A stretch of 64,000 nucleotides of DNA, taken from Gnetum montanum. Taxonomy: Eukaryota; Plantae; Gnetophyta. A program made the translations under genes and the position numbers. The notes under the pieces are model-generated. The model saw only the letters and a list, made by a program, of their open reading frames with translations, did not search any database and had not been told where the DNA came from. Positions 1-57,073 of this stretch are shown piece by piece. The DNA is taken from contig MNCI01003297.1 of NCBI GenBank assembly GCA_015680685.1, positions 104,065 to 168,064 on the forward strand. Direction: 5' to 3'. The first letter of the stretch is position 1, and each line of letters starts with the position of its first letter.

Positions 1-956
1 GTGCATTGAATGAAAAAGTAGGATACGCTGGCTGCTATGCTGTGCTATGCTACATAGAATAGCATAGTGTAGCAATAATACAAAAGTAGCGAAAGTGTTC
101 CAAACGTAAGTCCAACAAGTTCAAAGGCTTCCTGTCACAAAGAACAAAAGTTGTAGTTGTTAGCATGACCAAGCCTCAGACGAATGCTTTCAATTTCAAA
201 AAAAATTTTAGTTAAAACCAGTGGCTACGCTATGCTACGCTACATAGCATAGCACAGCGTAGCAAGAAGCCACTTACACTATGCCAATATATTGGAACAG
301 TGTGAGTAACACAACACTAGTAAAAAAATTTCAAGAACTTGGGTAGTTCTAGAACTTGTTAACAACAATCTTCCTCACTCTGGCATCTCCTTGGTGGAAT
401 CAAAAATTTCACTCCATTTTTTTCGACAAGAACAATTAGCTTGTTGGCTTTTTGCATTGGCTGGTTGGCTTCTTGATTGGCCTCTTAGAAAACGGAGTTG
501 GATTTTTTTTTTGCTGCAATTGGCTTTTAAGCTAGCTTTTAGAAGGCATAGTTGGCATTTTCTTTAAGCATTCTAGTTACCCTTGAGTTCTCTGTGTGTC
601 TCTAGTATTGTATAACTTTTTGTACACTCAAATAAGGCAAAGATTGAATCTGCGACCTTAGGTTGGTGCATTTTCTCACCTGAGTTTGTTTTGTTATTTC
701 TTTGCTATTATCATTTTTTCCACTATTTTCTCCTTTCTGCATTTATTGCTCATCGATTTACCTCACATATCTCACTCTCGAAACAACATTTATGTAAGGT
801 TAAGATACACTGACTAAGTTCTTTTCCGATTAACCAAACTGTTTAGGGCACCCCACTTCCATTTTTCTCTAGTATGGCCCTCACATGGATTCGGGGTTAA
901 ATTGTTTGCCCAACAACCTCTTAGTGTTCCAGCCACTAATTTTTTCAGTTGCTACA
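1..956 (+). repeat. Element A 5' LTR (partial, with an internal ~342-bp deletion)
   Basis: Aligns to ~16071-17370 except 16490-16831; ends GCTACA just before the PBS. Confidence 0.92.
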
Positions 957-961
957 GTTTT

Positions 962-976
962 TGGCGCTAGAAGGAG
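962..976 (+). promoter_or_regulatory. Primer-binding site complementary to the tRNA-Asn(GTT) 3' end
   Basis: TGGCGCTAGAAGGAG, 5 nt after the LTR; plant tRNA-Asn ends CCTCCTTCTAGCG-CCA. Confidence 0.85.
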
Positions 977-1349
977 AGCCTTTTGGTGCCTTTTCCATGT
1001 CCTACGGGTAGTCCTGCACACTCTCTGTATCCTGTCACGCAATAGCATAAATGTGACACCCTTTTGTAGTTGTTTAAGCATCGTGTGATGTAGATTTGTC
1101 GCAACAACATTTCCTTTGGAACTTGGCAGGAAGAAAAGCCTCTGATCTCCCATTGATTTTTGTGTTTCTTGTTTGTGATCTCCCCTTTTTACCATGCAAG
1201 ATGATTTCGACAATGACCACTGCTTCCACCTCGAGCCTTGAGGCTCCTTTCTTGGCCTAAAGCACCATGCGTGCTAAGTAGCCACCTAGCTTAGTGCTGG
1301 TGCCATTCCAATCCGTTAGGATTTGACACATGTCAGCCAAGTTCTTGGC

Positions 1350-3600
1350 ACAAGATGCAGAGCATTATGACTTTATCTATGCAAAGATCTAAGAAGATCT
1401 ACCCCTGGATCGCCAAGAACTCGAGCACAAATGTAGTTTCAAGTTCCTTTATAGGAATGGGAAGGAGTTTTTCCCTAACCCCAATGTTGCCATCCCCCTA
1501 ATGGAGACATATCAGTGGATCTTTGATCAACTACTACGAGTTAGTGGGCCTAGGGAGTAGGACACGCTATCCCATTGTGATGAAGCATTCCAGAACCTGC
1601 AGGAAGACCTGGACTCCCAGTCTGAGAGGGGTGGTCAAACTTACCCTATGACCATCCCTTCTGCCACAACATTTAGATTAAACCCCCTTTTTGCGGTGGC
1701 TCCTTTTGTGATCACCACAAATCTACCTCAATCTATGTTCTCATCAGCCATGGGCAGCCATCCTACACCCTCAACATATCAGCAAGCACCTCCCTCAATT
1801 TCATACACAAGCATTCTCCCCCCATTCCATCTCGTCCTCATATCAAGTGTTGGTTACACCCACGCTGCCCTACATACACATCACTTCTACTTCATAGTTG
1901 CCCAGAGCCTCCACTCCTATCTCATCCTCTGCATCTATTCCATCATCAACGGCAAGTTCAGCCCCAATTGCGTGGTGGACCCCATCCACTTCACTCCCCA
2001 CCTCATAAACCCACCAGATCTCATATCACTCATATCACCAAGTATATCAAGCCCTGTAGGTGTCGTAACCAAGCGCGGGGCTATGGCCCATTCCATCAGT
2101 CATGCAAATGACCAACCCTGTAGCACCACTAGCGGTCGCTGCTCCACCAACACCACCCACTGGGTGGTGGACCTCACAAATTACACCCTTTACAAGGGTA
2201 GCCCTAACAACCCCCCCTATGAGCCAGGCTGCTACCCTTGCTACGCCACAAATGATAGTTGCCCCCGCAACCCTGCAACTATCTGCATTATCTCCGTGTT
2301 TGGATCAAGCATTTCAACTTATCCAGACCCTCACTGAAGAGGTTAAATGCCTCAAGGCCATCAATTTTGACATGGTGCAAGTCATGGATTTTTACCATGA
2401 TGACCCCATCAGCCCAACGGTTCCCATGCTTACATTACCCCCTAGGATGCCGCTCCCTCAATTTACAAAATATAATGAGGAGGTTGTCCCTAATGCGTAT
2501 TTGGTTACATTCAAGTCTGAGTCCTTATTGGTACAACAATGGTCGCATGTCATTATTCGCATCTTTGTTATGTCCCTGACAGGTAAATCTTTAGACTGGT
2601 ATCACGCGCTCCCATGCTCCTCCATCTCAACATTGGAGGAATTGCTGACCCTATTCATGACCCGCTTTAAGTATAACTTGAAGCCCGAGGTCACGCTAGA
2701 TCAGTTGATAGGAGTTAAGCAAGACCTGCTAGAGTCGATGTAGAGGTTTATATAGCGGTGGTGCATCACCTTGAGTGAGATCCATGAGCCTATCGCGGAG
2801 GTCCATTCGCTAGCCATCTTCAAGGGAGCAGTGAATGATTTCATCAAATCCAAGTTATATTACCTGGCCCCACGATCTCTTAGCCAAGCTTTTGCATAGA
2901 CAAAAAGTGTTCAAGACACGGTTGAAGCCAGTAAGGACCCAACCGATGTTGCATATAAAAATGCATATACTAAAAAGGACAAAGAGAAGGGCAAGGCTGC
3001 AAAGGCCATGGTGGTTGCAGTGGAAAACGAGGCCAAGTCCAAAAACAATAATAACAAGAAAGAGACCACAGAGTCAACTAACCCTGCGCCTAGTCCAAGC
3101 AATGCTACACAACCCTCCACATCAGCACCAGAAGCACCCACCCTACCTAAACCTAATTTTGAGGGTAAAGATCACTCCAAGTACACCCTGCTACCGATCA
3201 AGCCTTCAGAACTTCTAAAGAAATTATTAAGGGTGGGGCACATTCAACATAAGCAGATGTCAGAGGAGGCAACCAAAAGGCATTAATGGTATTGTGAACT
3301 TCTTAGGAACCCCTCCTTGGCTATGCCCAATGAGCCCCCAGTTCCTAAAAACTTCAGGCTGGAGTAGTTCTGTGACTATCATCAAGTTTTTGGTCATGAC
3401 ACAGATTACTGTTTGGCCTTAAAAGATGACATTCAATGGATGATTGATCAAGGGCAGTTGGTGCTAGATGAGATCAATCCCATCCACCTTGAAAATCAAT
3501 CCTTGCATGTTTACAAGGACCCCCTCAATTCTAATGATGCAGGGTACATCATTAACATGATTAGTGTAGACGGTAATCCAGAACTACCACAATAGGCATT
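1350..3600 (+). pseudogene. gag: Element A gag (N-terminal domain, Pro/Thr-rich linker, capsid-like domain, CCHC knuckle)
   Basis: FVMSLTGKSLDWYHALPCSSISTLEELLTLFMTRF (2102-2743 ORF); CDYHQVFGHDTDYC at ~3370-3412; stops and frameshifts. Confidence 0.88.
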
Positions 3601-4369
3601 TATGGTTCGTGTACCTCAACGTAGTGTAGCAACACCAACAATGACAAAAAAGAAAATGTAGCAATTGTTTGTCCTTAAGGTCCCTCCTTGAACATCCAGC
3701 CCTGCACCTTTTGTAGTCTAAACCACACCACCCCCCACACTAACACCACAAATACCATTCATCATTAGGGGGCCAAAGCACTCAATTTCCCCCATCCCAT
3801 AAAACTAGCATAAAATGGCATCATAGCCTTCTCGTTCAAGGAAATGGAAGAGCATCTGATAGGTGAAATGGCTACAGAACGTACCACCCCAAGTCCTTCC
3901 AAGCCTACTCCTTCATCCTCTGCATCTATGCCAGCCTTGTCACCAAAAGTTAATGCTGCTACAGGCAGATGATCATCGCTACCTTACTCGAAAGGGTTTA
4001 GCCCCAAACCCAAAATTGCTCCTCCTCAGGAAATCTGTCTTCTAGGATGAATGGAGGAAGAGAAGGGTTGTAAGCAACAGGAAGATGGATAGGACCTCTT
4101 AAGCGCTCTTACTTAGGTAAAATAGGGTCTAAAATAAAAGAACACAACGTTAAGCCTGTACAACCTAGTAATGACTTCCACCGCACATCACGAGGCTTTG
4201 GTTCACATGTTAACATCCATATCAGTTAATGAGAATATGCCGGCAGAAGAGAAAGAAATCCATTCGGTCATGCTTCCTTCTACGCCTAAATAACTGCAGC
4301 CATCCTAATTAACATTCCATGATGAGTCCATTAAGGAAGACCCTGAAAAGGGTTAGGCAATGACAGCAC

Positions 4370-4990
4370 CCCTATTCATCACAATTTGGGTTAGTAAACA
4401 CAGGATCTGAAGAGTACACGTTGATGATGGGGTTGCTGGAAACATCATCCCATTTCCCAAAAGGTGGACAAACTGGGTTTGGTAGACCAAATCAAACCCA
4501 CGAGAACGTCGTTTCTGAAGTCATTCAACAGGGTGCGAGTAGTGAAAGGTACTATTCACATTGACTTTGTGGAAGGGGACCAGTTCCCCACAAGTGCAAC
4601 ATTTATCGTGGTAGAAGAGATGCCCAGGTTTAACCTGATCTTGAGGGGATCGTGGTTAGCCCAACTCAAGGCTGTCTCTTCATCCATACACTAGGAAATC
4701 CATCTACCTTATGTAGGTAGGGATGTGGTGATTCATGGTGACGAAGTGATAAGTCAAGCAATAAATAAAGTAGATATGGAGCAAGGTTCAAAGGTCATAA
4801 CCTTTGAGAATGAGGCACCTATTTTTGTCGATACCAATTGTTTGACAAAAGAGCTGGCCCAAAATGTCGGTTTAGAAAATGAAACTGCATAGGCTGAGTT
4901 GCATTTTCAAGCAGTAGACGATGATGTAGAAGAATACTGCAACAAAGCCTCTCGGCCTTACATGTTGCCAAGTCCACGATGGGTTAGAAA
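4370..4990 (+). pseudogene. Element A aspartic protease
   Basis: RVHVDDGVAGNII (degenerate D-x-G) followed by FNLILRGSWLAQLKAVSSSIH; homologous to 58020-58367 in C. Confidence 0.85.
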
Positions 4991-5154
4991 GTAGTTGCGA
5001 AGATGATCGTTACTCATGTAGCATAACAACTCCATTGCTCCTTACCCAATTAACGCCCATTATACATTTATTCCCTGTTTTCTTCACATTTACTTATTTA
5101 CGCTAAGTGTCTAACTTATTCTTTAAATCGTTCACATGTCCTTCGTTTGTATTA

Positions 5155-5262
5155 TGCCGTGGCCCGCTAAGGCCTAAAACTAGCAAAATTTTTCTTTACC
5201 ATCATCGCCACGACCCGAAATGGCCTAAAACTAGCGATGGCCCAAAATGGCCTTAAACTAAA
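5155..5262 (+). repeat. Short array of GGCC(T/C)TAAA(A)CTAG motifs
   Basis: GGCCTAAAACTAGC twice and GGCCTTAAACTA; expanded counterpart at 57245-57690. Confidence 0.7.
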
Positions 5263-5436
5263 ATGAGATGTTCCAAAAGAATTCAATTCACAAATGAAAA
5301 GAGAATAAAATACAATAAAAAATAAATACATAAAACACGAGCAAAATAGATCCCTTCGTATTTCAATTTTTTTCTTTCATAAATTAATAATGTTTGTCAT
5401 ATTCATCAAATTCAAATAACTTGGTCAGCTGCTACA

Positions 5437-8400
5437 CTATGACACTTTGCCTATTCCATCATTTCCTACTTCAGTAGGCCCTATGTTTTCACCTAGATCC
5501 TACACCATAAAAAGATGAACTAGTCAGCTAAAGTCACCATAAAGACTCCAACAAAATAAATTGATGTTATGCCAAAGGGTAGCTAACCCGAGACGGCCCT
5601 ACATTTGTTTTAGGCGATATCTGATCTAGGCTTTCCACCAGGCGTCATAAGATCTCCTCTTCCATGATTTCAACCCAATTCCTGTCACCCAAATCAGCGC
5701 TTGCAGCAAATTTCTCCTTCTCCATGGATTTCCATCTTGGGGGTCCAAGAGAAAAGGCGGTAGTGGTGGTCTCACCCATAGGAAAGGTCACTTCCCTTTC
5801 TAGGGCTCACTCATTGTCACATGTTGCATGAACCTATTGTAAGCCCTAGAAGCACCAACAATATTAAGGAACACCTCATGAGTATGTAATTTGACAGAGG
5901 CATCCCTATATTGGTTACAATAGGTGGCATGTTCTAGCTTATACATATGCTTATGATTTTTCTGTGCCTGCCCCCATTCGTAAACCTTGGCCCAGTAATC
6001 TTTCCAGTCTTGATTCTTTTAGGCTAACGGGTCCATTTTCATGCTCTGCTCTATTATCTCACAGGTGGCCTCATTGTTGCATCGCACAGCCGTCTAGTAC
6101 CTCGCATAGTCAATGACAGCTATGCGCCAACTACCATCATTGGTGTCCTGAGCCAACAGGAATTTGTTCCTAGAATGGAGATCTCCTACCTCAATGGCCA
6201 GGTTGGCCTTCTCTTTCTCAAACCTCTGGACTCGTTTCCAGAGGTTTTTGTTTATGCACCTACATTCCCACAAGGAGCGTGCTGAGTACAAAGCACATTG
6301 GTTTGCCTCATTGTATATGTGACGAGGTACTTCAGTTACCTTTGGTGGAAATGCAGGCATGATGTTGACCTTAACTACCCACTTAGGGTCCCACTTGAGA
6401 TGAGAAGATGCCAAACCAAAAAAAAAAGAAATGCATTATTCATAGAGGTGTAGTGAATACAACGACAATGTAGAGTCTAGCATAGCATTTTAGCTTACCC
6501 ACTTTAGGGTTGACCTGCCTTACACAATCAATCATGTCATTGACTATCCCTTCCATAAAAGTAAATTTGTCATGGGTTTCAGTCCATGGTCGCAAGCGAA
6601 TTGAGGACGGGCCAATGGTGTCAATAGTGGTATCATCTACACGGTAAAACGTGTTAGTTAGAATGGAGAAAACCATAATAGAGTTGATGAATAGCATAAA
6701 TGATAGTGTAAAGCTCCTAGCTAGCAAACCCTCAAGGGTGATAGCACGCGGGGGGGGGGGGGGGGGGGGGNNNNNCAGGGGGGTCGCCCATTGGCACATT
6801 GTCAAATATGTGGTCAAACTCACCAGCACCCAAATGGAGCCCCTCTCCTTCCAACTGACCCAATAATGTAGCAGCATCCTCGATGCTCATGTGCCCCTCT
6901 AGCACTGAGCTTCTCTCTGCGAAAAGGTCGTCAACAAGGGCCTCCTCCTGGTTGCTAGGAGCCTCCTCCTCTTCTTCATCGGTAGAGACCTCCTCCTCAC
7001 CAGCTGAGGCCCTTTCTTTTATAGCAAGGGCCTCTTCTTCTTCGGCAGGGGCCTTCTCCTCTATAGCTAAAGCCTTATCGTTTTCGTCAGTTGCCCCTAT
7101 TTTAGGGGCCACCACCTCTTCTCCATCTTCTTCTTCTTCTTCCTCCTCCATTGATAAAGCATAGTCACAGTAAGTAAACTAGACTAACTTGAAGTAGATG
7201 CTACGCTGTTCTACGTTGTGCTACGCTATCTAGCATAACACAGCATAGCAAGCGCTAGCCAAAAAACAAATAAAATTAAAATAAAAAAAAGAAGAGAATA
7301 CTTACCAATTGGAGGCTGCACTCTACAAAGCTTGAATTGCAGCTTCTTCCCCCTCTCTTCGTTAGTATGTGGGGTCTTGTCAGCAGGGCGGGACATCTTG
7401 CATTGTAGCTTTGTTGTCACCATCTTTACAATGCGGCGTTCTCCCCTTGTCACATTGTCGATGGCCCAAAAATTGCATGCCACCCAATCCATAGTCATCA
7501 TTGAGAATGACTCCTCGATAGCTTTTGGGGGATCCTGAGATCGAGTGGTATGGAAGACTTGGCAGAACCATGGTTTAGAGATTTGGCTACGATCTTGCAA
7601 TACCTAGACCCCATTTTTGTGGACTACCAAGAATTATGCAAAACGCCATAGGCATGCTATGAAAAAGGCATGGTACACATTAAAAAAGGATTCAAGCTTC
7701 CTACAAAGCTTCACCATCTTAGCCTACATGCCTTTGCAAAGATGCTTGGCCCAATTGTAACGGGTCCCTTTTTCCATGATTTCCTTCATTATCCGAGCCT
7801 GCTCAATCCCAATTATTTTTCCTTGGGAAAACATCTTGGGGAAGGCATGGGCACAGAAGATAGGGTAAACCGTTTTGGCCACCCATAGCCTAGCTTTTTC
7901 CATATAAATCCCCTTTCGGTCCTTTGCAGCCCCTAGCCACTCCATCTTTCTTGGATTTTTCTCCCATGGGGAGACAATCAACGGGGACACCAAAATTATT
8001 CATGAACAATTGATCATTGACATCAAGTACCACGTGCACATCATAAACACGTGTGCAAAAGCGATCTACCTTTTTAGAGAAGAAGTTGGATAGGGAAAGC
8101 ATCTTAGTAGGCGGGACACTTAGATTAACCACCAAAACAAATCCATAAGCCCAGCCTCCTAAAGGTTATAAACTAGTGTGGTTAGGACCCTGTTGTAGAG
8201 TTAGCACTAGGTCTCCTCCACCTCCTCATACTTAAAGGAGAGGTTGGTCTCGTTGCGCCTGGAGGCAATCACAGTCACCTCCTGGGCTTTCTTTGTTACT
8301 AAAATGATTCACCAAAAAAATGAAAAAAAAAAGAGAAAGAGGGTTAGCAAAACGTAAACATTACTCAAACATTTAGTAGTGGATGCACACTTTAGCATAC

Positions 8401-10147
8401 CAGGTTTGAACGACATGGGAAATGGTGGGAGATCCACCAAAACATCTTCGATGGTGAGCGGCCTAAGGGATGTCCATTCCCTATCCAACCAACTGGCTTC
8501 TTTACATTTCCCATAAAACTGGGAATACCGAGTTGGATAGGTTTTGAACTCACCCCCGAATTGGCCTATCATGCTGGCATGCACATTCCCAGTGGAGGAA
8601 AACTCCCGCAGGGCCATCTATGCCAATGCCAAGGCGTTTGTGTCACCGTGAAGACCACTCCTATCAATAAAAAACCTGGTAACACAAAAAATAAACACAT
8701 ACACTGTTAACACCTGTGTCTAGTGTAGAATGGATTACATGAAAAAATACCTTCGTAGAACTCACTCATCGGCATAGTAAATGGTTCCAAGTGGATTATG
8801 GAAGTAGGTGCCCATGTGATAGGTGATGAACAACGTGTTGTATAAGTGGTAGCACTTATACTCAGGCATTTCCTAGATCCAACTTAGGTATCTTAGGCTT
8901 TTTGGATGCTGGTTGGAACCTTCTATCCAATCGGCCTTGATTGACCCATCAATCAAAAATTTTAAAATACCTTGGTTTGCCCCATGCAAAAGGGTTTCTG
9001 TGATTGCGGCTGCTATCTCTGCTGATAAGTGTGACCAAAGGATCACACTAAAGTGCTAGAGGAGGAACTATAGGAAGTCTCGTACGCCTTCCTGGAACCA
9101 AACCGCCTACCACTCCACACGTGCATGGGGAGGAAGGACATTGGCCACTGGTTCGCTTAGGCAGCATAAGAATCCTACGATTTCCAGAACAATCAAAATG
9201 GGTTTCAACATAACCCTGCACCAACGAAGAACCAAACATTAGCACTATGTACAAGAAAAGTTTATATGTAGCATAGCACAACCCTTTTTATTATGTATAG
9301 CGTAGCATGGAATTTTCAATAGTATATCAGGATTTCGCAGTCACAAAAAAAAAAACAACAAATGCAAACAAACAACAACAAAGCAAGCTTCACAGCGTAG
9401 CATGGTCATCAAACTGCACACAATACGATAGTGCTTAGATGACATGTAATGTAGCAAATAAACTAAAATAAGCAAGCATGCAACAACAATGTAATCAGAG
9501 CATCACTACAACAAGCATAGCAATACAGCAAGCTTAACAAATTCGGCAATGCAGTGGTATTATAGACTTAACAGCGTAACGATATGACAAACCTACTAAG
9601 CCTTGCAACATATTAGCATACTACAATAAAAACATTACAAAGTGTAAATAAGTAAGAGTTTACTGTGCTACAACCATCCCAACCATAATTCAGATGTACA
9701 AAATAACTCACATTGTACTACATTAAACATGTGTCTCGGTTGTCAAATCGTGCAAAAAGCCAAACCCTCTTGAAGGCGGCACACTACGCTAGCCACGTGC
9801 TAAGTCACCCAGGCTCGCTCAAACCCCCGCAACAAGGAAATCATTACAATGGTGACCAAGGTGATACTGCATGTGGCTGTATTCTAGTATCCGTACGATT
9901 GTTGTGATCGACCAGCGACAGTGATAGCGTAGCGGCCAAAAATGGTGATCAAAATGGTGGCAAAAGACGCAGATTTCAACAATAGCGATTGCAAAAATTT
10001 GAACAACAAAGGCAACGTAATAACTTACCGAGTGGATGGAGTCTCCTCTCGCACTACAACGCACACCTAAGTTAGGCATCCCAAAGTGTCCTTGACTTTT
10101 TCCACTTTAGCAAGCCCTCAGTGCTTATGTTCGCCTTTGGGTGCCAT
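5437..10147 (-). pseudogene. Antisense 8-exon cargo gene of element A (~1,100 codons): FCP1/NIF HAD-like domain, plant-transposon-protein-like domain, acidic tract, helical C-terminus
   Basis: Exons 10147-10029, 9215-8751, 8675-8401, 8298-7306, 7147-6730, 6636-6499, 6407-5588, 5499-5437. Introns are GT..AG (two acceptors point-mutated in A but intact in C), phases are compatible, and most stops are TAG/TGA. Exons 4 (part) to 8 are conserved in C at 54762-57073. Confidence 0.85.
8500..9215 (-). pseudogene. FCP1/NIF-type HAD phosphatase-like domain (exons 2-3 of the antisense gene), catalytic Asp motifs absent
   Basis: Spliced translation KPILIVLEIVGFL..VWFQEGVRDFL*FLL*HFSVILWS..KSLRYLSWI*..YHLYNTLFITY..NPLGTIYY..ALREFSSTGNVHASMIGQFG..SQFYGKC follows the motif order of plant NIF-domain HAD proteins; recognised by eye. 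Confidence 0.7.
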
Positions 10148-10279
10148 CGCTTCACTTGTAGATACTGTCGACTACTGCGCTACACTATTTCACCTTCTCT
10201 CGGCACGATTACACTACGCTCTAGATGTGGACTCTGCACTCTGACAATGAAAATGACAAGTTTACTAGGGGTAAACCCC

Positions 10280-10287
10280 TATTTATA
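10280..10287 (-). promoter_or_regulatory. TATA box for the antisense gene
   Basis: Minus strand reads GCTATAAATAGGGG about 135 nt upstream of the ATG at 10147. Confidence 0.65.
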
Positions 10288-10474
10288 GCTGACGCAGTGA
10301 AAAGAACTTGTCATTTTTGCACCCCGAGTAATGTGAAATGCCTCATGCAACGTAGCGCAGGTGTGTCATAAATCTGTGATAGCATCGCATTCCTATTATG
10401 CAAATAGGTGGACCCAGCCAAAAATTTCCCCACACCTTGAATTAGAAACCTACCTACATGAAGCCTACACATCA

Positions 10475-10702
10475 CGGTCTGCAAAGACCTTAAATTAGCA
10501 GCTTTACCTAAGAACCACATCACAGTCCGCAAAGACCTTAAACTAGTAACTTCACCTAAAAACCTGTTAACAGTCCACAAAGACCTTAAACTAGTAACTT
10601 TGTCTTATAAGCTATTAACGGTCCACCATGACCGTAAATTGGTAAAGTTAATTACATGTTTGAACCCGCTCATGGTCCACCAAGACCTTAAACTGGTAAC
10701 CT
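10475..10702 (+). repeat. Tandem array (~50-nt units) with core GTCC(G/A)CAAAGACCTTAAACT(A/G)GTAAC
   Basis: About 5 copies, at ~10477, 10525, 10573, 10621 and 10674. Confidence 0.85.
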
Positions 10703-10779
10703 ACCAACTTGGCCAAATGTTTAACAATCATTGCATGTTTCATTATTTCTTTGCTAATGTTTATTGTTATACGCTATAG

Positions 10780-12510
10780 CTACAAACTGGTATCACTTGA
10801 TCAGGCTTCTTCTTATTGTGAAAGGTTGGATAAGATGGCCATGCAGCATGATCTACACTCACCTTTAACCTTGACAGGTCCTCATGGCAAACATGCAAGA
10901 TATCTAAACCTCGAGTTGGTAGACTAGAATTCATCTGCTGATAACATTGTAGCATCCCTGGAAATGTCCCTAGATTGGCCTAAACATTTGGTCTAAGCCT
11001 TAGACCTAGAGGCTGGGGATGTGACTGAGGACCCTCTCATCAAATCGTTAATAACGACATCCAGGGGGAAATAAAGACACTAAAACTAAGTTCCCTCCTG
11101 GAACAACAAATGCAAAAAGATATATCCAGAGTTCTTCAAGACAACACCAAAGTATTCGCATGGTCCTACAATGACATGCCAGGTTTAGACCCACGGCTGA
11201 TACAACATAACATTGTATTGGACCCACGTGTCAAACCTATTAAACAAAAGGCTCGCAAGATTAAGCTAGAAATTGCACTAGCCATACGTGATGAAATCAC
11301 GAAGCTATACCAAGCAGGTTTCATTCGCGCAGTTGACTACTTAGAATGGGTGTCAAACATCGTTGTAGTCTCTAAGAAAATGGGAGAGATACGAATCTAT
11401 ATAGAGTTTTGGGATCTGAATAAAGCAACGATTAAAGACGACTTCCCACTACCAAGTATCGACCAGCTTATCGACACTATGGTTGGTCATGCTCTACTAT
11501 CCTTCATGGATATGTTCTTTGATTATAATCAAATCTGCATAAATCCAGAGCATCAGCTGACAACCACTTTCATGACCCCTTGGGGTACTTTTGTTACACA
11601 ATGATGTCCTTTGGTTTAAAGAATGCCGAAGCAACTTATCAACGAGCCATGACCTACATCTTTAGCGACTACCTTCTAGAGAGGCTAAATGATTATGTGG
11701 ATGACACAGCAATCAAATCTAAGACAACTATTGATCATCCCACTGATTTAGATGTAGTCCTGAAACATTGTCACATGCATCACTTGCGACTTAATCCAAA
11801 GAAGTGTGTTTTCGGCATAAAAACCAGACGCATGTTAAGGCCATCGTTAACCTAACACCTCCTACTAACCTTAAAGAATTATGTGGGTTGCAAGGTAGAG
11901 TGCAGTTCATCAGAAGATTTATAGCAAGGTTGACTGACAAGTTACATCCCATGCAAAACTTACTAAAGAAGGGGGTTAACTTCGAATGAACAACACAGTG
12001 CCAGCAAGCCTTTGATGACCTAAAGAAAGAGCTTTTACACCTCCCGACTGTGTACCCACCACAGAGGGATAAGCCTTTCTACATCTACCTTGCAACCTTG
12101 GATACATCTATCACAACACTGTTATGTGAAAAAAGAGAATACGGCTCTGAGATCCCAGTCTATTACTTGAGCCATGCATTAATAGCATATAAAGCGAAAT
12201 ACAACGAAGTGGAAAAGAATTACCTCACTTTAGTGTTTGTACTAAAAAAGTGCAGACACTACGTGTTCCGTAGCCAAGTGAACATCATATGCAAAAGCAA
12301 CCTACTTCAGGCTATCATAAACAACTTGTATGAAAGTAGCAAGATAGCTCGATGGAAAGCAATAACAGCGGAATTTGATTTACACTATGTAGCCCAATCA
12401 TCAACTAAAGGACAAGCGATAGCTACTTAGCTTGCAACCTCGCTTGTTGATGATCAGGTGATCATAGAACCCGAATTTCCTAATGAACATGTTAGCAGCA
12501 TCAACCTTGT
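10780..12510 (+). pseudogene. pol: Element A reverse transcriptase and RNase H
   Basis: VFAWSYNDMPGLDP, KDDFPLPSIDQLID, LSFMDMFFDYNQI, MSFGLKNAEATYQR, YVDD; PVYYLSHAL...KIARW. Confidence 0.95.
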
Positions 12511-12519
12511 ACCATCGCA

Positions 12520-12900
12520 TTTTAAGGCCACCTTGCATTTAGACGGCACCTTTATTGCATGAGGTGGTGGTGCTGCCATCATCATTACATTCCCCTCAGG
12601 GGACATGCAACTGTTTGCTTACCACTTCACATTCCTTTTTACGAACAATGTAGCTGAGTACGAAGGACTCCTTAGGGGCCTCTTAGCAACCCAGCAATTG
12701 AAAATTCTACATTTAGTAGTTTGAGGCGACTCACAGCTTGTTGTCAATCAAATCACTAAGGTCTACGCCTATAAAGCTTTGCATTTATAGCCTTACTGTG
12801 ATTTGGCCAAAAATGTATTGCAACAATTCACCACAATAGACATCCAGCATGTTCCACGTAATGAGAACACCATAGTCGATGCCTTAAGCTACGTTAGCAT
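12520..12900 (+). pseudogene. Additional archaeal-type RNase H (aRH), diagnostic of the Tat clade
   Basis: LHLDGT..GAAIII..FTNNVAEYEGLLRGL..GDSQLVVNQI..HVPRNENTIVDALS. Confidence 0.9.
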
Positions 12901-12999
12901 TAAATGTGCCACCACACCTATTTGTGACCCTACATTCTTCGATAACAGAGTGCACAGATGCTATCACCCAAGCAATACACGTGGCTTCCGTAAGTGCTA

Positions 13000-14255
13000 C
13001 CAACACCCAAGAGTGGTATGCTAACATGAAAGCCTACCTGCAACATGGTGAACCCCCACATAGCCTGACATCCACCTAAAGGGATGTAATCCGAAAGCTA
13101 GCATAGCAGTATATCCTCGTAGGAAATGATACCTTGTGTAAAATCTCCTTTGATGGGATACTGTTAACTTGCGTTGGTGGGGAGGAGGCACAAAAAATTG
13201 TTAGCGAAGTCCATGAAGGACTATGTGGAGGACACATAGCTTCTAAGGCCATGGTAGCTAATATTAGACACCTAGGGTATTACTGGCCTTGCATGGAATG
13301 CGATTGTTTTGCTAAAGTAAAAATGTGTGACACGTGCCAACATCACGCAAATCGTATATGTGTGTCACCTACTGAGTTGCACCCTACGCAAATCACATGG
13401 CCATTCCAATGATGGGGACTAGATATCATAGGAGCCATCACACCTAAGTCTTCCCTAGGACATAGCTTCATCATTATTGCCACCGAGTACTTTACGAAGT
13501 GGGTAGAGGCTATACCCCTAAGGAAAACTACATCCCAACAAGTTTACCACTTCATCTTGGATAACATCGTAACAAGGTTTGGCCTTCCCATGACTATTGT
13601 GATCGACAATGGGCCACAATTTAGTAGTGCAGAAACTAGAACCTTTTGTAGCAACCTTGGCATTAAGTAATCTTTCTTGTCACCATATTACCCCTAGGCT
13701 AATAGTTAGGCAGAAGGAATGAACAAGGCCATCATCAACTTGCTTAAAAGAATGCTTAGCAATAGCAAGAGGCAATGGCATGAGCAAATCCTCCATGTGC
13801 TCTAGGGCTACCGTATAACATGTAGGACGACCACAGGTAAGACCCCCTACAGCCTAGTCTATGGATCTGAAGCAGTGTTACCCCTTGAATTACAGTTGCC
13901 ATCACTACAGATGATCCTTTTAAGCATCATAAATGAAGCCCAGAAGAACGAGTCAAGGATCATTGATCTTGACACCCTAGAGGAAGAGTGTACATAGACA
14001 TTGGGTCGCATCGAATGGTATCAGGACAAGTATCGAAAAAATCATCATACAGACCTACATCGATGGCTGATTAAAAAGGGGGACCTAGTCCTCAAAGCTA
14101 TGTGTGAACATGTGGACAAGTTTTTGGAAAACTGGGAAGGACCATTTATACTCACAAAAGTCTACGAGAATGGAGCTTTCAAGCTAGCAGACATGGATGG
14201 TAGAGAGTTTGCAAACCCTGTAAACCACCAGTACTTGAAGCCGTACTTCGTCTAA
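13000..14255 (+). pseudogene. Element A integrase
   Basis: VHEGLCGGH..GYYWP..CDTCQ (HHCC), WGLDIIG, EYFTKWVEA, DNGPQF, NWEGPF..PVNHQYLKPYFV. Confidence 0.95.
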
Positions 14256-14269
14256 TGTAGAAGCAAGGA

Positions 14270-14546
14270 AAGCGCCATAGTCTGCTACAACTATAAATTG
14301 GCATCAGCATTCCTCCATGATTATAAACTGACACAGTTAGTCCACCATGACAATAAACTAGCACAGAACATTTTCTATGATGTTAAACTGGCACAGATAG
14401 TCTGCTACGACCTTAAACTGGCCCATCCACCATCCGCTACGATGATAAACTAGCACAGCAGTCTACTAAGACCTTCAACTAGCACTATGGTCTGCTTGAA
14501 CCTTGAACCAGTGTATCAGACGGTCTACCAGGACCTTAAACTAGCT
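14270..14546 (+). repeat. Post-integrase tandem array (~28-31-nt units, core CTAC/GACC..TAAACT(A/G)GCAC)
   Basis: About 9 degenerate copies; counterpart at 51870-52245. Confidence 0.85.
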
Positions 14547-15175
14547 TCGCGGCACAACCTTCATAGCTCACAATCCACGATCATTCAAACAAGCGATCAT
14601 GCACAGTGCCGACGTGGGGTGGAGCATTGAAGTCCTAGAATGCAGTCCACGATGATAAGAAATTACCCTTTGGAACATATGCAACGCCACTGCCCTTGGC
14701 ATCTTGCTAATCCTTTGGAGATGTTGTATGACATCTTACTGACCTTCCAGAGCTACCGCTACCATAGCCTGTCACCCTAGTAGTAGCTTCTGTTATCAAC
14801 ACCTGCAGCTAGAGTCCCAGCACTATTGTGGCCCAGCCACAAGGCTGCTACCCTCCAGTCCTCACCATCATCCAAGCTCAAAAGACATTCATTTGTTAGG
14901 CCTCTCACCTTATGGCTAGACTACATGATGTTTTCCTTGGGCAGGGACCCCTAAGCACTCGCATTACCTCAACTCCTAACCCCCTCAGTGCTGGCCCCTT
15001 TAGCCTACTACTACCATAACCGCTGCTGGTCTTCCTGCTTTAGACATTGTGTGCCTTAGCAACAGTGCTTGTCACTTCAATGATGTCTAAAACAAGTAAG
15101 ACCTTTGTCTAACTACATCTCATGGTTACATTTCTCTAGTCTGCTTTCTGTTGTGTTTGCAGGATACATACCGAG

Positions 15176-15457
15176 ATGGCGTCGGTTAGAGGTGTGTTTC
15201 ACCAAGAGGACAAGACACCAAATTGTTCCAAGGTGATTGCTCTGACTAGCTTAGTTACTTGGGAGTGCACATCCTGCCCCTCCTCTTTAACCTCTTTCAT
15301 CTCATTTCTCAAACCCACAGTTTCCCTTTTCACATCCCTTTTACCAGCCTTCTCGACGCATGTAAATCCCTCCCATATGCTCAACTGCAAATTCCATGAC
15401 ACGTGTAATGCAATTCACTGCATGGGAAGCATCTGTAGACAGGTCAAATCCCTCTAG
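15176..15457 (+). other. Short 3' ORF preceded by a conserved splice acceptor; function unknown
   Basis: CTGTTGTGTTTGCAG|GATACATACCGAG-ATG; the same acceptor and ATG occur on - in C (~51240-51290). Confidence 0.4.
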
Positions 15458-15494
15458 ATGTATTCTTTGTTGGGTGGATCCTCTAAACATCGAC

Positions 15495-15503
15495 AAAGAC
15501 GGG
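15495..15503 (+). promoter_or_regulatory. Element A polypurine tract (degenerate)
   Basis: AAAGACGGG; the equivalent in C reads AAAGAGGGG next to its LTR. Confidence 0.7.
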
Positions 15504-15505
15504 CT

Positions 15506-17370
15506 AGTAAAACACCAAAAAATTTCAAGACCTTCATGCTTTAGCTAGATCTTGGAATGCAGGCAAGGACTTCCACAAGTGTAGCGTCATGACAATTCAG
15601 CAGGAAGATGTAGGCACTGAGTTTAGACTGTCCAGTCCAACAAGTTTTCTACATCCAGAGTTGATAGGCCCAACGAACTCTCTAGCCTGCCCACCTGGAC
15701 CATGAACCCAACTGGCAGTCTCCCCAGAAGCTATGCTATGAGTCATCGAAAGTGTTTGGGATAAGCAAAATAGTTCAAAAATTTTTCTAGTGATGAAGTC
15801 TGCTACGCTATGCAGCATAGCAAGCATGAAAGATAATTTCTCAAGTGGCCAAGTGTGAATTGGTAGAATGATTACAAATACAAGTTAGGATTTAGTTAAT
15901 GCAATGTGCTATGCTATGTAGCTTAGCACAACATAGCAAAGGCAGTGCAGAAAGGCCCATCTTTTCAAGTGATTCGAACAAGAAAGTCATACTTGGTAAC
16001 ACTTTGGCCCCCAAAACTAGTTTCCACACTTAGCCCCAAACTTCGAACAAAATTTCTTGCTAGAAAATGGCGCATTGAACAAAAAAGTAGGATATGTTGG
16101 CTGCTATGCTGTGCTATGCTACATAGTGTAGCATAGCGTAGCAACAATACAAAAGTAGCAAAAGTGTTCCAAACATAAGTCCAGCAAGTTCAAAGGCTTC
16201 TCATCACAAAGAACAAAAGTTGCAATTGTTAGCAATACCAAGCCTCAGACAAATGCTTTTAGTTCCAAAAAAAATTTCACTTAAAACCAGTGGTTATGCT
16301 ATGCTATGCTACATAGCGTAGCACAATGTAGCAAGCCACTTATGCTACGCCAATATACTCAAACAACGTGAGTAACACAACACTGGTACAAAAGCATCAA
16401 GAAATCTTCGAGTAGTTCTAGAACTTGTTGATAGCAATCTTCCTCACTCTAGCATCTCCTTGGCAAAATCAGCAATTTCACTCCATTTTGCAAACCCCTG
16501 GCTAGCTCCCAAAACATTGTTCCTACACTTGATGCTGCTTGTAAAAGCAAGAAAGATGTAGTCCTGGAGCGTAAGCTCCATTTTTGTTTGCAATGATAGC
16601 CCACTGACCTCAGCACATACAGTCTCAGAGGCATAGTCATAGCGTAGCCAAGTTCATGTCTAGCATTGCACACCTACCTAGTATGGGCACATTTGCATTT
16701 TGTGGGGTCCAAGACATGTGGCATCCAGGCCCCATTTCTCGTCTGCTCCTAGCCCTATAAATACCTCGGCAAATAATGCTCAAAGGGTTGGTTGTTTGGG
16801 GTTGCTATTTTGTTCAGAGAGTTGGCATTTTTTTTGACAAGAGTAGTTGGCTTGTTGGCTTTTTGCATTGGCTAGTTGGCTTCTTGATTGGCCTTTTAGC
16901 AAACAAAGTTGGCTTCTTTTTTTTTCTGCAGTTGGCTTTTAAGTTGGCTTCTAGAAGGCATAATTGGCATTTCCTTTGAGCATTCTAGTTACCCTTGAGT
17001 TCTCTGTGTGTCTTCACCGTTGTATAACCTGTTGTACACTCAAACAAAGCAAAGAATTGAATCCATGACCTTGGGGCAATGCATTTTCTCACTTGAGTTT
17101 GCTTTGTTATTTCTTTGCTGTTATCATTGTTTTGCATTGTTTTCTCTTTTCTGCACTTATTGCTCATCGATTTACCTTGCATATCTCGCTCTCGAAACAA
17201 TGTTTATGTAAGGTTAAGATACACTGACTAAGTCTTTGTCTGATCAACCAGACTGTTCAGGGTGCCCCACTTCCGTTTTTCTCCAACACAGCCCTCACAC
17301 AGATTCGAGGTTAAACTATTTGCTCGGCAACCTCTCGGTGTTCCAGCCGTTGACGTTTTCAGTTGCTACA
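15506..17370 (+). repeat. Element A 3' LTR (~1.86 kb), TATA at 16756-16763
   Basis: Matches 1-956; starts after the PPT; CCCTATAAATACC; ends GCTACA. Confidence 0.9.
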
Positions 17371-20324: not shown

Positions 20325-21109
20325 TGATGAGCCATGATATCGCATCTGCCCCCACAATATCGTGGTCCGCTGCAATGTCTATAAATAAGAGGTGGCTTTC
20401 CTTGTTTTAGGCACTTAGACTTAGATCCTTAGCCAAACTATATCAGTTTTACCATTCTAGAGTTAGAATAATTTCCATGTGCCTACAATAGGAGTCTTAA
20501 AGTGAATGGATCTTTATTCGAGCAAATTGTACCTGAGCACACATTTGTGTACAACAATAAAGATGGACTTTATGATAAACCTTACAACATATGGACTAAG
20601 CTAAATAGTAATTAATTATTGTTGAATTTTTAATTGCTTTCTTAGTTAATTAATCTCTCTCAACCCTTGACTCTCCTAGTTAAGTGCACTCAGTACGACT
20701 ACTTCGAGCATGTGTGTAGCGCTTGGTAACCCAATAACGATTAGCATTTGGTAATCACAATAGCATTGCACTGATTTAGGATGTGTGCGGCAGGTGGGAA
20801 CGGATACTAGTGTTAGGAACAATTAGAACATAATTAGTGAATAGTTAATGAAAGTTAGTCACGTAGTTCTCTTCACCTTCCCCTATTAGCATAAGACATT
20901 AAAAAGATAAAAGATATAAAAATCATATACCTCAAGCTTACTTAACCATACAACCGTGATAATACAAGTAAGTTTGGGAAGACAATGATTAATTAACCTT
21001 AAGTGTTCCATTAGGGTGCGTAATCACTTAGTCCTTAGAGTTCGATCGGATCGCATGTGAAACGCTCGTATTGGTATGGTTGAGTGTAGGGGTACCTCAC
21101 CACTCATCA
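20325..21109 (+). repeat. Element B 5' LTR
   Basis: Closely matches 33043-33841; TATA CTATAAATAAGAGG at ~20378. Confidence 0.95.
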
Positions 21110-21110
21110 T

Positions 21111-21128
21111 TGGTGCCATTGTTGGGGA
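21111..21128 (+). promoter_or_regulatory. PBS (tRNA-Asp type, Athila)
   Basis: TGGTGCCATTGTTGGGGA, a transition-decayed form of TGGCGCCGTTGCCGGGGA. Confidence 0.85.
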
Positions 21129-21369
21129 CTTAGTTGTTTGTGTGTTATGTAGAACATAGGAGATCATTCATATAGTTGGGACGCTAAAACGAACCCTTAG
21201 GGTTAATCAAGAAAAGATAAGACAATGGTAAATAGCACACTGAACAAGACAAAAATGTCTTCTTCTTCGCAAAAAAGCACTTCACCACCTAGGACTAACA
21301 CAAGAGACAGTCGACGACACAACACATGTAACCAAGATCCACCAATTGCTTAAAAATTCCATGTCATAT

Positions 21370-23165
21370 ATATTCATCATGATGAATATGTACCCAAATT
21401 TATCTTTATTCTCCATAAAGATGAAAAACTGCATTGGAGAGACTTGGAGGGTAACATGGTGTTGCCTTCAGACCTAGCAGTCCCCAACATGCTCCTTTGT
21501 GCTCTCGCATGAATAGGCATGTCACAGTTGTACGCAGAGTACATTACATGTGACCATGACACAAGGGACTACCATCCCATAGAAGCAAAACATCAAAGGG
21601 ACTTGCAACAGGAGAGATATCATACGTCGTTGAAGGGTAAATGGCCCCATAATGCCCCGCATGTCTTGAGCGAAATCGAGGGTGGTGAACTTGCTTCAAC
21701 AGGTTCCCCACCAAATGATGTTCCCCCTCCTAACAATGGTTAGGAGGTGGTGTATCAGAACCTTTACTCCACGGTTCACAACCATGGTTCTGATCCCCAC
21801 AAACACCAAGTGTTCAACGAGGGAACACAAACACATGATAAGGGTGGGCAGTCTGATCATAATCACAATCGGGGCTGATACTACCGAAGAGAAGGTAGGA
21901 AACATTATCATGGCAATGGTTCTCCTTCTTCTTCACCTTCATCGTCACATTCATCCTCTCCTTCAGTGTCAGGACCCAGTCATAAGGAACCTAACCGTGA
22001 GGATAAAGGTAAACTGAGTGAGAAACCTCGATGAGAGAGTCAAGAATGAGGACGAGGGCACTCTAGGGAATCATAGCATAGAAGAAGGTAGAGTAGGGAA
22101 CCACGTAAACATCATAGATGATATGAATGAAATGATCATGAAGAATCCCTACTCGCAACCCAAAGCATGTTAAATATCATGAAGGTCTTAAGAATTCCTA
22201 CAAGGCACCAAAAAGATAGCAGGATCAAGAGGNTAATTCCTACAAGGCACCAAAAAGATAGCAGGATCAAGAGGTTAGACATGAATAACATCCCACGATT
22301 TGAGGGGGGATACAACGCTAATCCTCAGAACCACATACATGCATTTCATGATGCATGTGCCTTGCAGAACATCGAGAACGANGTACATGCATTTCATGAT
22401 GCATGTGCCTTGCAGAACATCGAGAACGAATGGAAAAAACTAAAGTTGTTCCCAAGGACACTAGTAAAAGAAGCAGAAAGCTGGTACCAGTCCTTAGAAC
22501 CAAAATCCATTCGAAGGTGGAGTACGATGCTAGAGCTATTTAATGATAAGTATCAAATCTACTCCTGGGTGTCCAACCTACAAAAGAAAATCCAAGGATG
22601 AAAGCAAGGAAATCATAAACCCTTGGATGCTACCATGGGCCGTTATTATGCACTATTACATCATTGCCTAGGCCATGGTTACACACAACGGGATCAACTA
22701 TGTCATCTTGTAGATGGACTTAGGCATGAAACTTGGAGAACCCTTGGAATGTATGCCCAAGGGAGATTATCAGAGCTTAGGTCCCATCAGGTCCATAGAT
22801 TATTGGAGCAAGTAGCCAAGGAAGAATGGGAGCTATGTAAGAGAGAAACTATGGAAGAGTACAACCGCAATCCTTCCCTCCGAAAAAAAGGAGTGAGATT
22901 TTGTGAGGAGGAGGAAGAGTCACCACTCAAAGATATGGTGAATAGGAAAACCTTGCTACTCCAAAAATTAACAATAGAAGTGTCAGCAAAGGTAGACCAA
23001 ATGTGGGACTCCCTAGATAGTATATTTGAAACCGTTCTCAAAATTGTAGAGGAGTCTAAGGAGCGAGGTAGGGACTATGAGAAAAAGAAAAATAGGGACA
23101 TGAACATGGAAAATGCATTGGTAATCTCATCTAAAAATAAAACACTCATGTGGATCATTGGTTGA
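21370..23165 (+). pseudogene. gag: Element B gag
   Basis: IPRFEGGYNANPQNHIHAF..KLKLFPRTLVKEAESWY..FNDKY; LLHHCLGHG..HLVDGL. Confidence 0.88.
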
Positions 23166-27573: not shown

Positions 27574-27865
27574 ACCAAAGAGGAGAAACTCCAGGCCATA
27601 CTTCAACATCATCAACCCCCAAGACCTGGAGCACAAGACAAGGGGAAAGCACCTATGGAGGAGCCACCACCAGGAACTACATGAGTTCCACCAATTTTGT
27701 AGCTATAGCACATTCTTTGTGTTGTGTCTTAATCTTGTCTTGATTCCGCACTACGACATAACCCCATTTTCACCATCTAATAATCTCGTACCTATCCACT
27801 ATGTAATCAATGGAGCTTGTTCTCACTTTGACTCGAGGATGATTTTTCACTCAGTCGTGGGGGTA

Positions 27866-31117: not shown

Positions 31118-31152
31118 ACTCGCTCATTATTTCGGATCACCTCCTTTCAACT

Positions 31153-54757: not shown

Positions 54758-54761
54758 CTAG

Positions 54762-57073
54762 ATCGAAAGGGGATTTACATGCAAAAGGTCAAGCTAGAGG
54801 TAGCCCATAAGGTTTACCCTATCTTCTAGGCTCGTGCTTTTCCCAAATTACTCTTCCAAGGGAAAACCCTTGGAGTAGAGAAATCTTGGGTTATGAGGGA
54901 TGTCATGGAAGAAGGGACTCACTATAATTGGGCCAAGTATCTCATTGCAAGTTTGTAGGCCGAAATGATTAAGCTTTATGAGAAGCTTGATGCACATTTT
55001 AATGTGCATTTCACCTTTTTTATCACTTGCCTATGACAATTTGCTAAATTTTTGGTGGTCTGAGAGAATGGCATCTAGGTGTTGTAGGATCACACCCAAA
55101 TATCCAAACCATGGATTTGCCAAGTATTCCACACCACTTGCTCACAAGACCCCCCGAAAGCCATTGGAGAATCTTTTTCAATAACAATGAAGGATCAGGT
55201 GGGCCAGCCCTTTTATGCACCAGACAGTGTTGGACTAGCATCTTCCACTAACATGGGCAATACGGTTAGTGGGGCATGCCTTATTATTGAAACAATGAAA
55301 TTGAAATTGCAATGCAATAAATCTCATCCCGTGGAAGAGCCTTCACATGCCAGTGAAGAAAGAGACAGAAGGTTGTGAATCAAGGTTCGCAAAGTGTAGC
55401 CCACAATTGCTAGTGAGTATGGTTTAATTGTCTTGTTAGCTAAAGCTACCTTCCCTCATTTTTACATTAGACTAGCATGCTCACTTTAGATCTTTTTAAT
55501 AGATGATGAAGAAGAAGCTTTGGCCCCTAAGGCAAGGGCCCCTACTATAGAAGAAGAAGAGGCCCCAGCTATAAAGGAGGAGGCCCTTGCAGCAGAGGAA
55601 GAGGCCCCTGTTGCAAATGAACCTTTAGCAAAGTGTGCCTTGTCACTTGAGGGGCATATGATGGTTGAGGACACTGCTACATTGTTAAGTCAGCTTGAGG
55701 TGGAAGAGCTAAAATTTGACGTTAGTGAGTTTGATAGTTTGCTTAACAATGTGTCAATGGGCGATCCCCCCACTCTCACCCTTGAGGGTTCGCTGGGTAG
55801 CAGCTTTGCACTATTGTTCATGTCATTTTTTAGTTTTATTTTCCTCTTCTTCACCATGCTAACATGCTTTTTTGTGCAGCAGACACTACTACTAATGCTC
55901 CCAATTCTTCCTTCTCATTTTTTCTCCAACCATGGACCAAGACCCTGGACAAGTTTGCCTTTATGGAGGGGGTAGCTGATGACATGATCGATTGCTTAAG
56001 GAAAATTGATCCCAAAATAGGTGTGTTTGCATTATGAAATTTGCACTCTGTGTTGTTATATTTTTACCATCGTCTCATGACTAATGCTTTCTCATGTTGG
56101 GTATAACAGCTTCTTAGGTGAAGTGGGATCCAAGATAGGTAGTCGAAGTTGACGTTGTTCCTAAACTTCCCCCAGAGGTAACCGAGGTGCCTCGTAATGT
56201 ATACAAGGAGGTGAGTAAATGCATTCTATACTCAACATGGTCCCTGTGGGAGTGCAAGCACGTCAACAAAGACCTCTGGAAGTAGGCCCAGAAGCTAGAA
56301 AAGGAGAAAGCTAGCCAAGTGGTTGAACTAGAGGATCTACGGTCAAGTAATGAGTTCTTGGTGGCCCATGACACTTTTGATGGTAGTTGGTGTACAACCA
56401 TGATTGTTTATGCAAGATATTGGTCAACCGTATGGGATAAAAATGAGGCTACCCATGAAATAATTGAGCAACGCTTGCAGATGGATCTACTGGCCCAAAA
56501 AAACTAGGATTGGAAAGATTATAGCACCGAGGTGTATGAATGGCGGCATGCACAAAAAAATCATAAGCACATGTACAAGGTAGAATGTGCTACCTACCAT
56601 CAAAAATATCAAGATGCTTCCATTGAGTTGCATACTCATAAGCTATTTCTTAATGTAATCGGTGCTACTAGGGCCTTTGATAAATCTACAAAATAGATAG
56701 TGGTCAATGAGTCTCCTAAGAGGGAGATGACCTTGCCTTTTGGGAAGACCACCACTGCCACCTTTTCTCCAAAGCTACCCACTTGGACGGCTATGGAGAA
56801 GGGGAAGATTGCGGCTAGCGTTGATTTAGGGAAAGAAGATTGGAAAAACTTGAGCAAAGATGATATACTCTGATTCTTAGTAGCTAGCATGGACAGAATG
56901 CCTCCAAAGATGGATGCAGGCCCATCTCAGTTTAGCCAAACTTTATTTTGTTGTAGTTTATTTTATGATATGTGATGTGATTTGACTCATTATTTTATTC
57001 TTTCTTTATGTAGGGCCCAAATGAGGATGTAGAACCTAGTAAGGTGAGGGATAAAGATATCGGCGGAGACTAA
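54762..57073 (+). pseudogene. Element C copy of the antisense cargo gene (part of exon 4 through exon 8)
   Basis: Introns 55413-55502, 55788-55879, 56021-56109 and ~56930-57013; DRKGIYMQK..THYNWAKYL, ISKPWICQVFHTT, acidic tract, KWDPR..PPEVTEVPRNVY. Confidence 0.85.

Follow-up and report, generated by a model that had tools for sequence, protein, structure and literature searches.

A NIF-type HAD domain with most catalytic residues replaced, in a predicted antisense gene of a Tat/Ogre-like retrotransposon of Gnetum montanum

Introduction

What use could an LTR retrotransposon have for a phosphatase fold from which nearly all of the active site has gone? The question is raised by a stretch of 64,000 nucleotides of Gnetum montanum DNA (hereafter the window), in which a sequence-only reading had picked out a captured NIF-type HAD pseudo-phosphatase domain. 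Extra ORFs of Tat and Athila retrotransposons are described as carrying PMD, Transposase_28, Athila ORF-1 and lysine-decarboxylase-like domains (PMC6317226, PMC4408406, PMC11963269; accessible sections), and the role of Tat-type extra ORFs is treated as an open question in the accessible text of two of these reports (PMC4408406, PMC11963269). Our preferred answer, offered tentatively, is that the NIF-type domain, with six of its seven catalytic residues gone and situated in a predicted antisense gene, serves as a non-catalytic adaptor that aids expression of the element; the more specific assignment of the adaptor to element expression, which draws on analogy, is held a little more tentatively still.

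Results and Discussion

The host element

An old and decayed Tat/Ogre-like LTR retrotransposon (element 1) occupies window positions 3-17370 (Table 1). Its two LTRs are about 85% identical (K2P 0.159; 115 transitions and 17 transversions over 951 aligned nt), from which it follows that the copy is old and that decay has proceeded mostly by transitions. The difference in LTR length corresponds to ~340 nt at 16489-16826 of the 3' LTR that are absent from the 5' LTR at 415-420. The primer-binding-site-like sequence may be of the tRNA-Arg type. Pfam models matched pol with E-values of 1.2e-12 (RVT_1), 7.4e-19 (RT_RNaseH_2), 4.2e-19 (RVT_3) and 1.4e-14 (rve), and the second RNase H lies between the first and the integrase (RT_RNaseH, RVT_3, rve), the arrangement of Tat elements. 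Such a dual RNase H ahead of the integrase marks the Ogre/Retand type among them (PMC6317226, PMC4408406; accessible sections). The Pfam scan returned no match for the protease-like region.

About 6 kb separate the gag-protease block, whose protease lacks a profile match, from the reverse transcriptase (RT), and no splice joint across this distance was found in four RNA runs. The cargo gene sits in this spacer (window 4900-11028), where Ogre has its intron, and any gag-pol splice would remove ~6 kb containing the antisense gene. The extra gene is internal and has no match to the plant mobile domain (PMD), and thus differs from the PMD-encoding extra ORF that Ogre elements carry at the 5' or 3' end. 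Short tandem arrays at 10474-10700 (before RT) and 14277-14548 (after the integrase) seem related to each other and to arrays of a second family member, element 2. Elsewhere in the window, a third LTR-like element spans 20357-33846, with a 300-nt sequence directly repeated at 20357 and 33089 and a gag match (Pfam E 3.5e-7) over 22131-23165, and a tRNA-Pro(TGG) gene lies on the minus strand at 41130-41201 in an AT-rich stretch.

Table 1. Features of element 1 and of the related part of element 2, in window coordinates
Feature	Position	Strand	Evidence or remark
5' LTR	3..956	+	~340 nt shorter than 3' LTR
Primer-binding-site-like sequence	about 962-976		after 5' LTR
gag	2069..3286	+	Pfam Retrotrans_gag E 0.0013, under cut-off
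Decayed protease-like region	4200..4852	+	by-eye reading; ~70% alike in element 2
Cargo exon 5: Glu-rich acidic tail	6730..7183	-	acceptor and end uncertain; 5 N at 6771-6775; acidic stretch homologous in element 2
Cargo exon 4: conserved domain, 331 codons	7306..8298	-	element 2 comparison, dN/dS
Cargo exon 3: probable C-terminal extension of NIF domain, then linker	8401..8675	-	colinear with hosts; not significant alone
Intron 2 (predicted, 90 nt)	8676..8765	-	GTGAGT...AG, in frame
Cargo exon 2: NIF/HAD core, motifs I-IV	8766..9215	-	profile and HHalign evidence
Residues of P0001 (starts 9220)	E13 9184; V15 9178; S63 9034; R110 8893; T133-Y134 8824-8819; T138 8809	-
Cargo exon 1 (predicted)	10029..10147	-	ATG at 10147, GTAAGT donor, phase 2
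TATA-like box (putative promoter)	10275..10290	-	sequence; ~140 nt upstream of cargo ATG
pol: RT, RNase H, second archaeal-type RNase H, integrase	11029..14253	+	Pfam
3' LTR	16072..17370	+
Cargo exons 4-5 in element 2	54761..55780	+	NIF exons and 5' part of RT absent

A predicted antisense gene belonging to the element

Between gag and RT a five-exon gene is predicted on the minus strand (763 codons, no frameshift, 18 stops), its four introns all being GT-AG with matching phases. The peptide fragments on which the sequence-only reading had built all proved to share a single frame of the minus strand (9220 to 8399), and its interval of 8401-9215 coincides exactly with predicted exons 2 and 3: an AG acceptor directly precedes 9215, and a GT donor directly follows 8401. 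These two exons hold five stops, all TAG. Stops number 18 in 763 codons of the cargo frame, 14 in 947 of pol and 4 in 394 of gag; the cargo frame has decayed at a rate similar to or slightly above that of pol and gag.

Two features tie the NIF exons to the element. Exon 3 joins exon 4 in phase at the predicted splice, and exon 4 is common to element 2. The 9-mer AGCRTAGCA, which occurs 34 times in the window against 0.93 expected, with 34/34 occurrences inside the two elements, is also present in cargo introns 1 and 4 and so flanks the NIF exons on both sides. An unrelated insertion into this single copy is ruled out by the in-phase splice and these element repeats together, and the earlier placement of the domain within the element's own cargo gene stands.

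Four RNA runs contained no splice joint at the predicted cargo introns, strand not being inferable from them; almost every read in them fell below 90% similarity, and poly-A artefacts at 7261-7296 and 9345-9382 made up the majority. Words of 7300-10300 occur in runs labelled as five organisms, with shares of 0.67 to 0.09, the small shares being no evidence; there were no RNA runs among the matches listed.

Homology to the NIF family

From sequence comparison, cargo exons 2 and 3 almost certainly encode a NIF-type HAD domain, exon 2 being firmly supported and exon 3 weakly. In Pfam, NIF (PF03031) was the sole family matched, at 13.7-15.5 bits (E 0.052 and 0.014) against a cut-off of 21.8; the profile check that the earlier reading had proposed therefore named the expected family and no other, with a best score (15.5 bits) below threshold. 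A second profile was built from outside NIF members retrieved with a short motif (at least 124 loci, out of an estimated 180 or so), 21 non-redundant complete domains being kept from 46 and the query excluded. Against the peptide read from 9220 (P0001) it scored 28.1 bits over residues 9-132, compared with 5.6 bits for the best of 5000 shuffles, which excludes a chance match, and with 1.4 bits for the next best place among 642 six-frame pieces of the window. A search seeded with the outside domains gave 369 proteins, of which the best 120 were used; all are marked PF03031 and are named C1271.03c-like, UBLCP1-like, HAD-like or hypothetical. The profile of these 120 land-plant-dominated homologs aligned nearly gap-free with residues 8-91 (27.7 bits), and HHalign against all 141 host domains gave 93.9% probability (E 1.6e-7; 209 columns, 22% identity). 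Identity of the cargo domain to hosts is 20-24%. The homology claimed by the earlier reading is borne out by all three comparisons.

Signal is unevenly spread along the domain. Shuffling residues 92-152 lowered the global HHalign score from 44.4 to 26.0 +/- 4.0, with 0/100 shuffles reaching the real score, so the segment of motifs III and IV contributes real NIF signal. When exon 3 was shuffled, 17/100 reached the real score, which gives this exon no significant signal of its own. The spliced peptide scored 44.4 against 36.0 for the unspliced one; with the donor at 8765 the FG and FY motifs of exon 3 fall in gap-free host register, and in a fixed register from the NP anchor the shuffles at or above the real score numbered 988 for this donor, 1564 for donor 8750 and 17959 for the unspliced reading, each out of 20000. 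Intron 2 is thus best placed at 8765-8676, the alternative in-frame donor 8750 being a poorer fit. The motif alignment quoted in the earlier reading holds for its exon 2 part; its exon 3 part is colinear and of the right length, and marginal in significance.

Folded with the host alignment, the peptide gave a model with pLDDT of about 90 across the greater part of residues 11-80 and 111-150, a confidence driven by that alignment; the single-sequence model (pLDDT 40) is meaningless. Matches of the alignment-driven model were SCP1 (Z 12.6, rmsd 3.4, 160 aligned), CTDNEP1 (12.4), Fcp1 (11.4), UBLCP1 (11.1) and Tim50 (10.8), and are likewise not independent of the alignment. P0001 had no relative at E <= 0.001 among 621 word-sharing candidates from a 5.8-billion word search or among 1.84 billion protein representatives, one chance match among solved structures (E 0.16) and no match in NCBIfam. 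Of 61 pattern matches in metagenome contigs none was confirmed as a related locus, viral contigs yielded none, and no BRCT or dsRBD partner domain was matched in the cargo exons scanned.

The donor family and the question of the Pol II CTD

Among the families tested, the closest appears to be the plant 'uncharacterized FCP1 homology domain-containing protein C1271.03c-like' group, whose profiles give 28-29 bits where the general Pfam NIF model gives 14-15. The sequence-only reading had set the domain beside the FCP1/CPL enzymes, which dephosphorylate the Pol II CTD, and for this link we found no specific support. A domain of this kind could act as a dominant-negative decoy of CTD phosphatases (FCP1/CPL), and the structural matches to SCP1, CTDNEP1, Fcp1, UBLCP1 and Tim50 speak for such a decoy; however, these matches (Z 12.6-10.8) are near ties and a consequence of the alignment supplied, the profile scores favour the C1271.03c-like group, and the literature searched held no tie of that group to the CTD. 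We consider a CTD decoy highly improbable. In the C1271.03c-like homologs the third position of motif I (P0003-P0122) is Asn, not Asp, in 117/120; because the second Asp of the DxD pattern is absent, any activity of the donor is itself putative.

The NIF domain is likely host-derived, as far as sequence comparison can tell, in agreement with the earlier reading; the two checks that reading had suggested, intron positions and phylogeny, did not single out a donor. In host loci a GT follows NP directly in 59/128 motif matches, and another break precedes the Asp after the FCW motif. Cargo exon 2 runs through both positions and has its own intron nine codons after NP, so that no intron position is common to the cargo NIF exons and the intron-bearing host loci. 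Some host loci are intron-free across the NIF domain, and the lack of host introns in exon 2 fits either of two sources of the captured copy, a spliced mRNA and a gene without introns. A quick tree in which the C1271.03c-like subfamily alone was included gave the cargo domain a branch length of about 10, where substitutions are saturated and long branches meet, and placed no donor. The flanks of 124 host loci had no match to element gag, RT, RNase H, integrase or exon 4. One host-type gene has two tandem intron-free NIF domains with intact motifs (L013 1242-3023; L073 850-2631) and groups with a moss-containing clade in the quick tree.

What was lost from the active site, and when

The first Asp of the motif I signature DxDx(T/V) is the nucleophile in the NIF family (accessible text of PMC8346121). 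In the cargo domain one of seven catalytic columns is kept (motif II Ser, S63). Motif I reads E-x-V-G against D-x-N-G in hosts. The columns holding R110 and T133-Y134/T138 we take to be motifs III and IV; with this assignment the motif III Lys has become R110, the motif IV Asp pair T133-Y134 and the following Lys T138. In HAD phosphatases the motif IV Asp pair holds Mg2+. Among the best 120 of 369 homologs, the motif I Asp and Asn are each conserved in 117, and the motif III Lys, both motif IV Asp and the following Lys each in 120/120. Both replacements that the sequence-only reading had named, Asp to Glu in motif I and DD to TY, were therefore upheld against the hosts.

The same reading had allowed that some substitutions might be decay after insertion. 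An extreme form of this idea is that the element carried an active phosphatase and that its missing residues reflect decay of this copy, which is old (LTR K2P 0.159) and has 18 stops in its cargo frame. Post-insertion decay falls short, however: 13 motif codons, picked as host-conserved positions and including one that is unchanged, require at least 21 changes in 39 nt from the host residues, with eight codons needing two or three, whereas decay since insertion amounts to ~8% per site (binomial P = 4e-14 at 7.5% and 2e-8 at 15% per site). Even the Asp-to-Glu change, a single transversion, is unlikely to stem from decay, the LTRs having just 17 transversions over 951 sites. The idea of an active enzyme that decayed after insertion is accordingly rejected; we regard it as extremely improbable. 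The excess of changes over the per-site rate implies that the loss of the active site predates insertion of this copy; as judged from sequence, the site was very probably dead by then, a firmer statement than the earlier reading had made.

Reads of diverged copies in the RNA runs cover the NIF exon. One exon-2 stop has a different first base in 16 of 17 such reads, from which this stop is taken to be private to this copy. Of 278 read-difference rows, the 39 displayed include five at 9169-9190 and none in the codons of E13 or V15, which fits an older loss of the active site and is suggestive only.

Replacement of the active site might instead accompany a change of function, to a non-canonical enzyme with a Glu nucleophile or to a binder of nucleic acid, lipid or metabolite in the particle or in reverse transcription. 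Motif I is still acidic, motif III still basic and the Ser of motif II retained, and the title of a report on orchid Gypsy elements calls their captured AlkB domain functional (PMC9289625); against this, Thr and Tyr stand in place of the two motif IV Asp, and Thr in place of the Lys that follows. We think such a change of function unlikely.

Exon 4, element 2 and selection on the NIF exon

Most of the internal region is 65-76% alike between element 1 and element 2, a family member in inverted orientation at about 48400-61300. Element 2 carries the counterpart of cargo exon 4 (54761-55408) in the same place and the same orientation, with 51% amino-acid identity over 216 columns. For 139 codons dN is 0.212 and dS 1.575, giving a dN/dS of about 0.13 with dS near saturation (integrase, 0.14). 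Exon 4 is under purifying selection. Its family was found neither in Pfam, NCBIfam and Atlas nor among 21 protein-database candidates; it may resemble Transposase_32 or PMD.

Element 2 lacks an equivalent of 7921-11834, the start of RT included, and because the absence also takes the RT start, the missing NIF exons are most simply explained by a deletion. At 54697-54761 the inside of RT nearly abuts cargo exon 4, in ~3.9 kb less than in element 1.

The NIF exons might instead be a passenger: an ancient capture that was joined to a useful exon 4-5 protein and stayed open merely as its upstream in-frame part, having no binding role of its own. The low identity to hosts (20-24%) on a saturated branch would be expected of such a passenger, as would the pattern of losses, catalytic columns being kept in 1/7 cases and other conserved columns in 16/31, an excess of catalytic loss that is not significant (Fisher p 0.10); the absence of the NIF exon from element 2 points the same way, though part of RT is absent too. 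The domain is nevertheless full length with near gap-free spacing and retains those 16 of 31 conserved non-catalytic columns, whereas long drift would be expected to bring indels. Eight displayed read differences at sense codons of exons 2-3 comprise four synonymous and four nonsynonymous changes. We consider a passenger rather unlikely, and the NIF exon itself is probably under selection.

An adaptor in element expression

In the adaptor reading that we prefer, an ancestor of the element would have taken up a C1271.03c-like host gene in intron-free form, and the active site would have been lost, with the fold kept, ahead of this copy's insertion. The cargo gene would have its own promoter, and its antisense orientation would allow its introns to survive in genomic RNA and through reverse transcription. 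The product of ~760 residues might act in trans in the nucleus, where the dead HAD domain could bind a host protein, exon 4 could tether the product to chromatin or to the DNA of the element, and activation could come from the acidic tail. Loss of the phosphate-contacting Lys and Asp argues against phospho-specific binding, and the phosphoprotein-binding module or decoy suggested in the sequence-only reading is conjectural. We infer a role in element expression because of the acidic tail, the conserved exon 4 and the analogy with Tat extra ORFs and PMD-phosphatase modules, as far as the accessible text of two reports describes them (PMC11963269, PMC7156037). Precedent for a dead NIF-family domain as a binding module is found in fungal Tim50 (PMC8346121, in part), which shares the NIF-family fold, an imperfect DxDx(T/V), the lack of phosphatase activity and the use in binding; Tim50 is a membrane-anchored receptor of host mitochondria, whereas the cargo would be a transposon accessory protein nearer another NIF subfamily.

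Extra ORFs and captured host domains are already known from Tat and Athila elements, and a dead NIF/HAD cargo is a new variety of them. As in the extra ORFs of Tat/Ogre/Retand and Athila, a large antisense accessory ORF accompanies a dual RNase H ahead of the integrase (PMC6317226, PMC4408406, PMC11963269; accessible sections), but the classification puts those ORFs on the 5' or the 3' side of the polyprotein, whereas the cargo gene here is internal (between gag and RT) and predicted to be spliced (PMC6317226, in part). The extra-ORF domain table of REXdb, limited to domains with E <= 1e-10 in at least five elements, has no NIF/HAD entry (PMC6317226 Additional file 4, as accessible), the word 'phosphatase' is absent from the main text of a 2026 gene-capture review and a 2026 transposon-product atlas, and the open-access literature searched yielded no retrotransposon described with a NIF/HAD domain. 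Orchid Ty3/Gypsy elements with AlkB/2-ODD likewise have a host enzyme domain fixed as an additional ORF of a Tat-type element, with the difference that the orchid domain is reported functional and the cargo NIF domain has another fold and no active site (PMC9289625, in part). MAIL3 and MAIN/MAIL1-PP7L (PMD-PP7) share the pairing of a transposon-type with a phosphatase domain in the control of gene and transposon expression, but are PPP-fold modules of host genes that silence transposons, whereas the cargo has a HAD fold and an exon 4 with no PMD match (PMC7156037, in part). The cargo shares with the C1271.03c-like family ~209 colinear columns at 22% identity, including W-S of motif II, N-T-L before motif IV and NP, and differs in its replaced catalytic residues and its place inside a retrotransposon.

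A host fold with its active site removed offers a handle, in that direct tests can be aimed at the donor family, at the residues lost and at the surface retained. Being antisense, internal, under the Pfam cut-off and, as predicted, spliced, this is a class of cargo that would escape ORF-based surveys, and it points to a highly conserved plant NIF family as something that a transposon found worth copying.

A more elaborate reading is that a family of plant LTR retrotransposons made a pseudo-enzyme of a captured HAD phosphatase, joined it to the conserved exon 4 domain and the acidic tail, and placed the spliced gene in antisense within the gag-pol spacer. The protein would bind the AGCRTAGCA pairs of the family's LTRs and introns and either recruit or block a phospho-regulated host factor, so forming a sequence-specific anti-silencing system based on a pseudophosphatase; we consider this quite unlikely. 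The 9-mer is itself a candidate binding site or RNA hairpin signal. Its sites lie at 33-264, 6479, 7199-7250, 9270-9522, 13100, 15801-16323 and 48798-50582, often as inverted pairs in the LTRs, the 3' region and the cargo introns.
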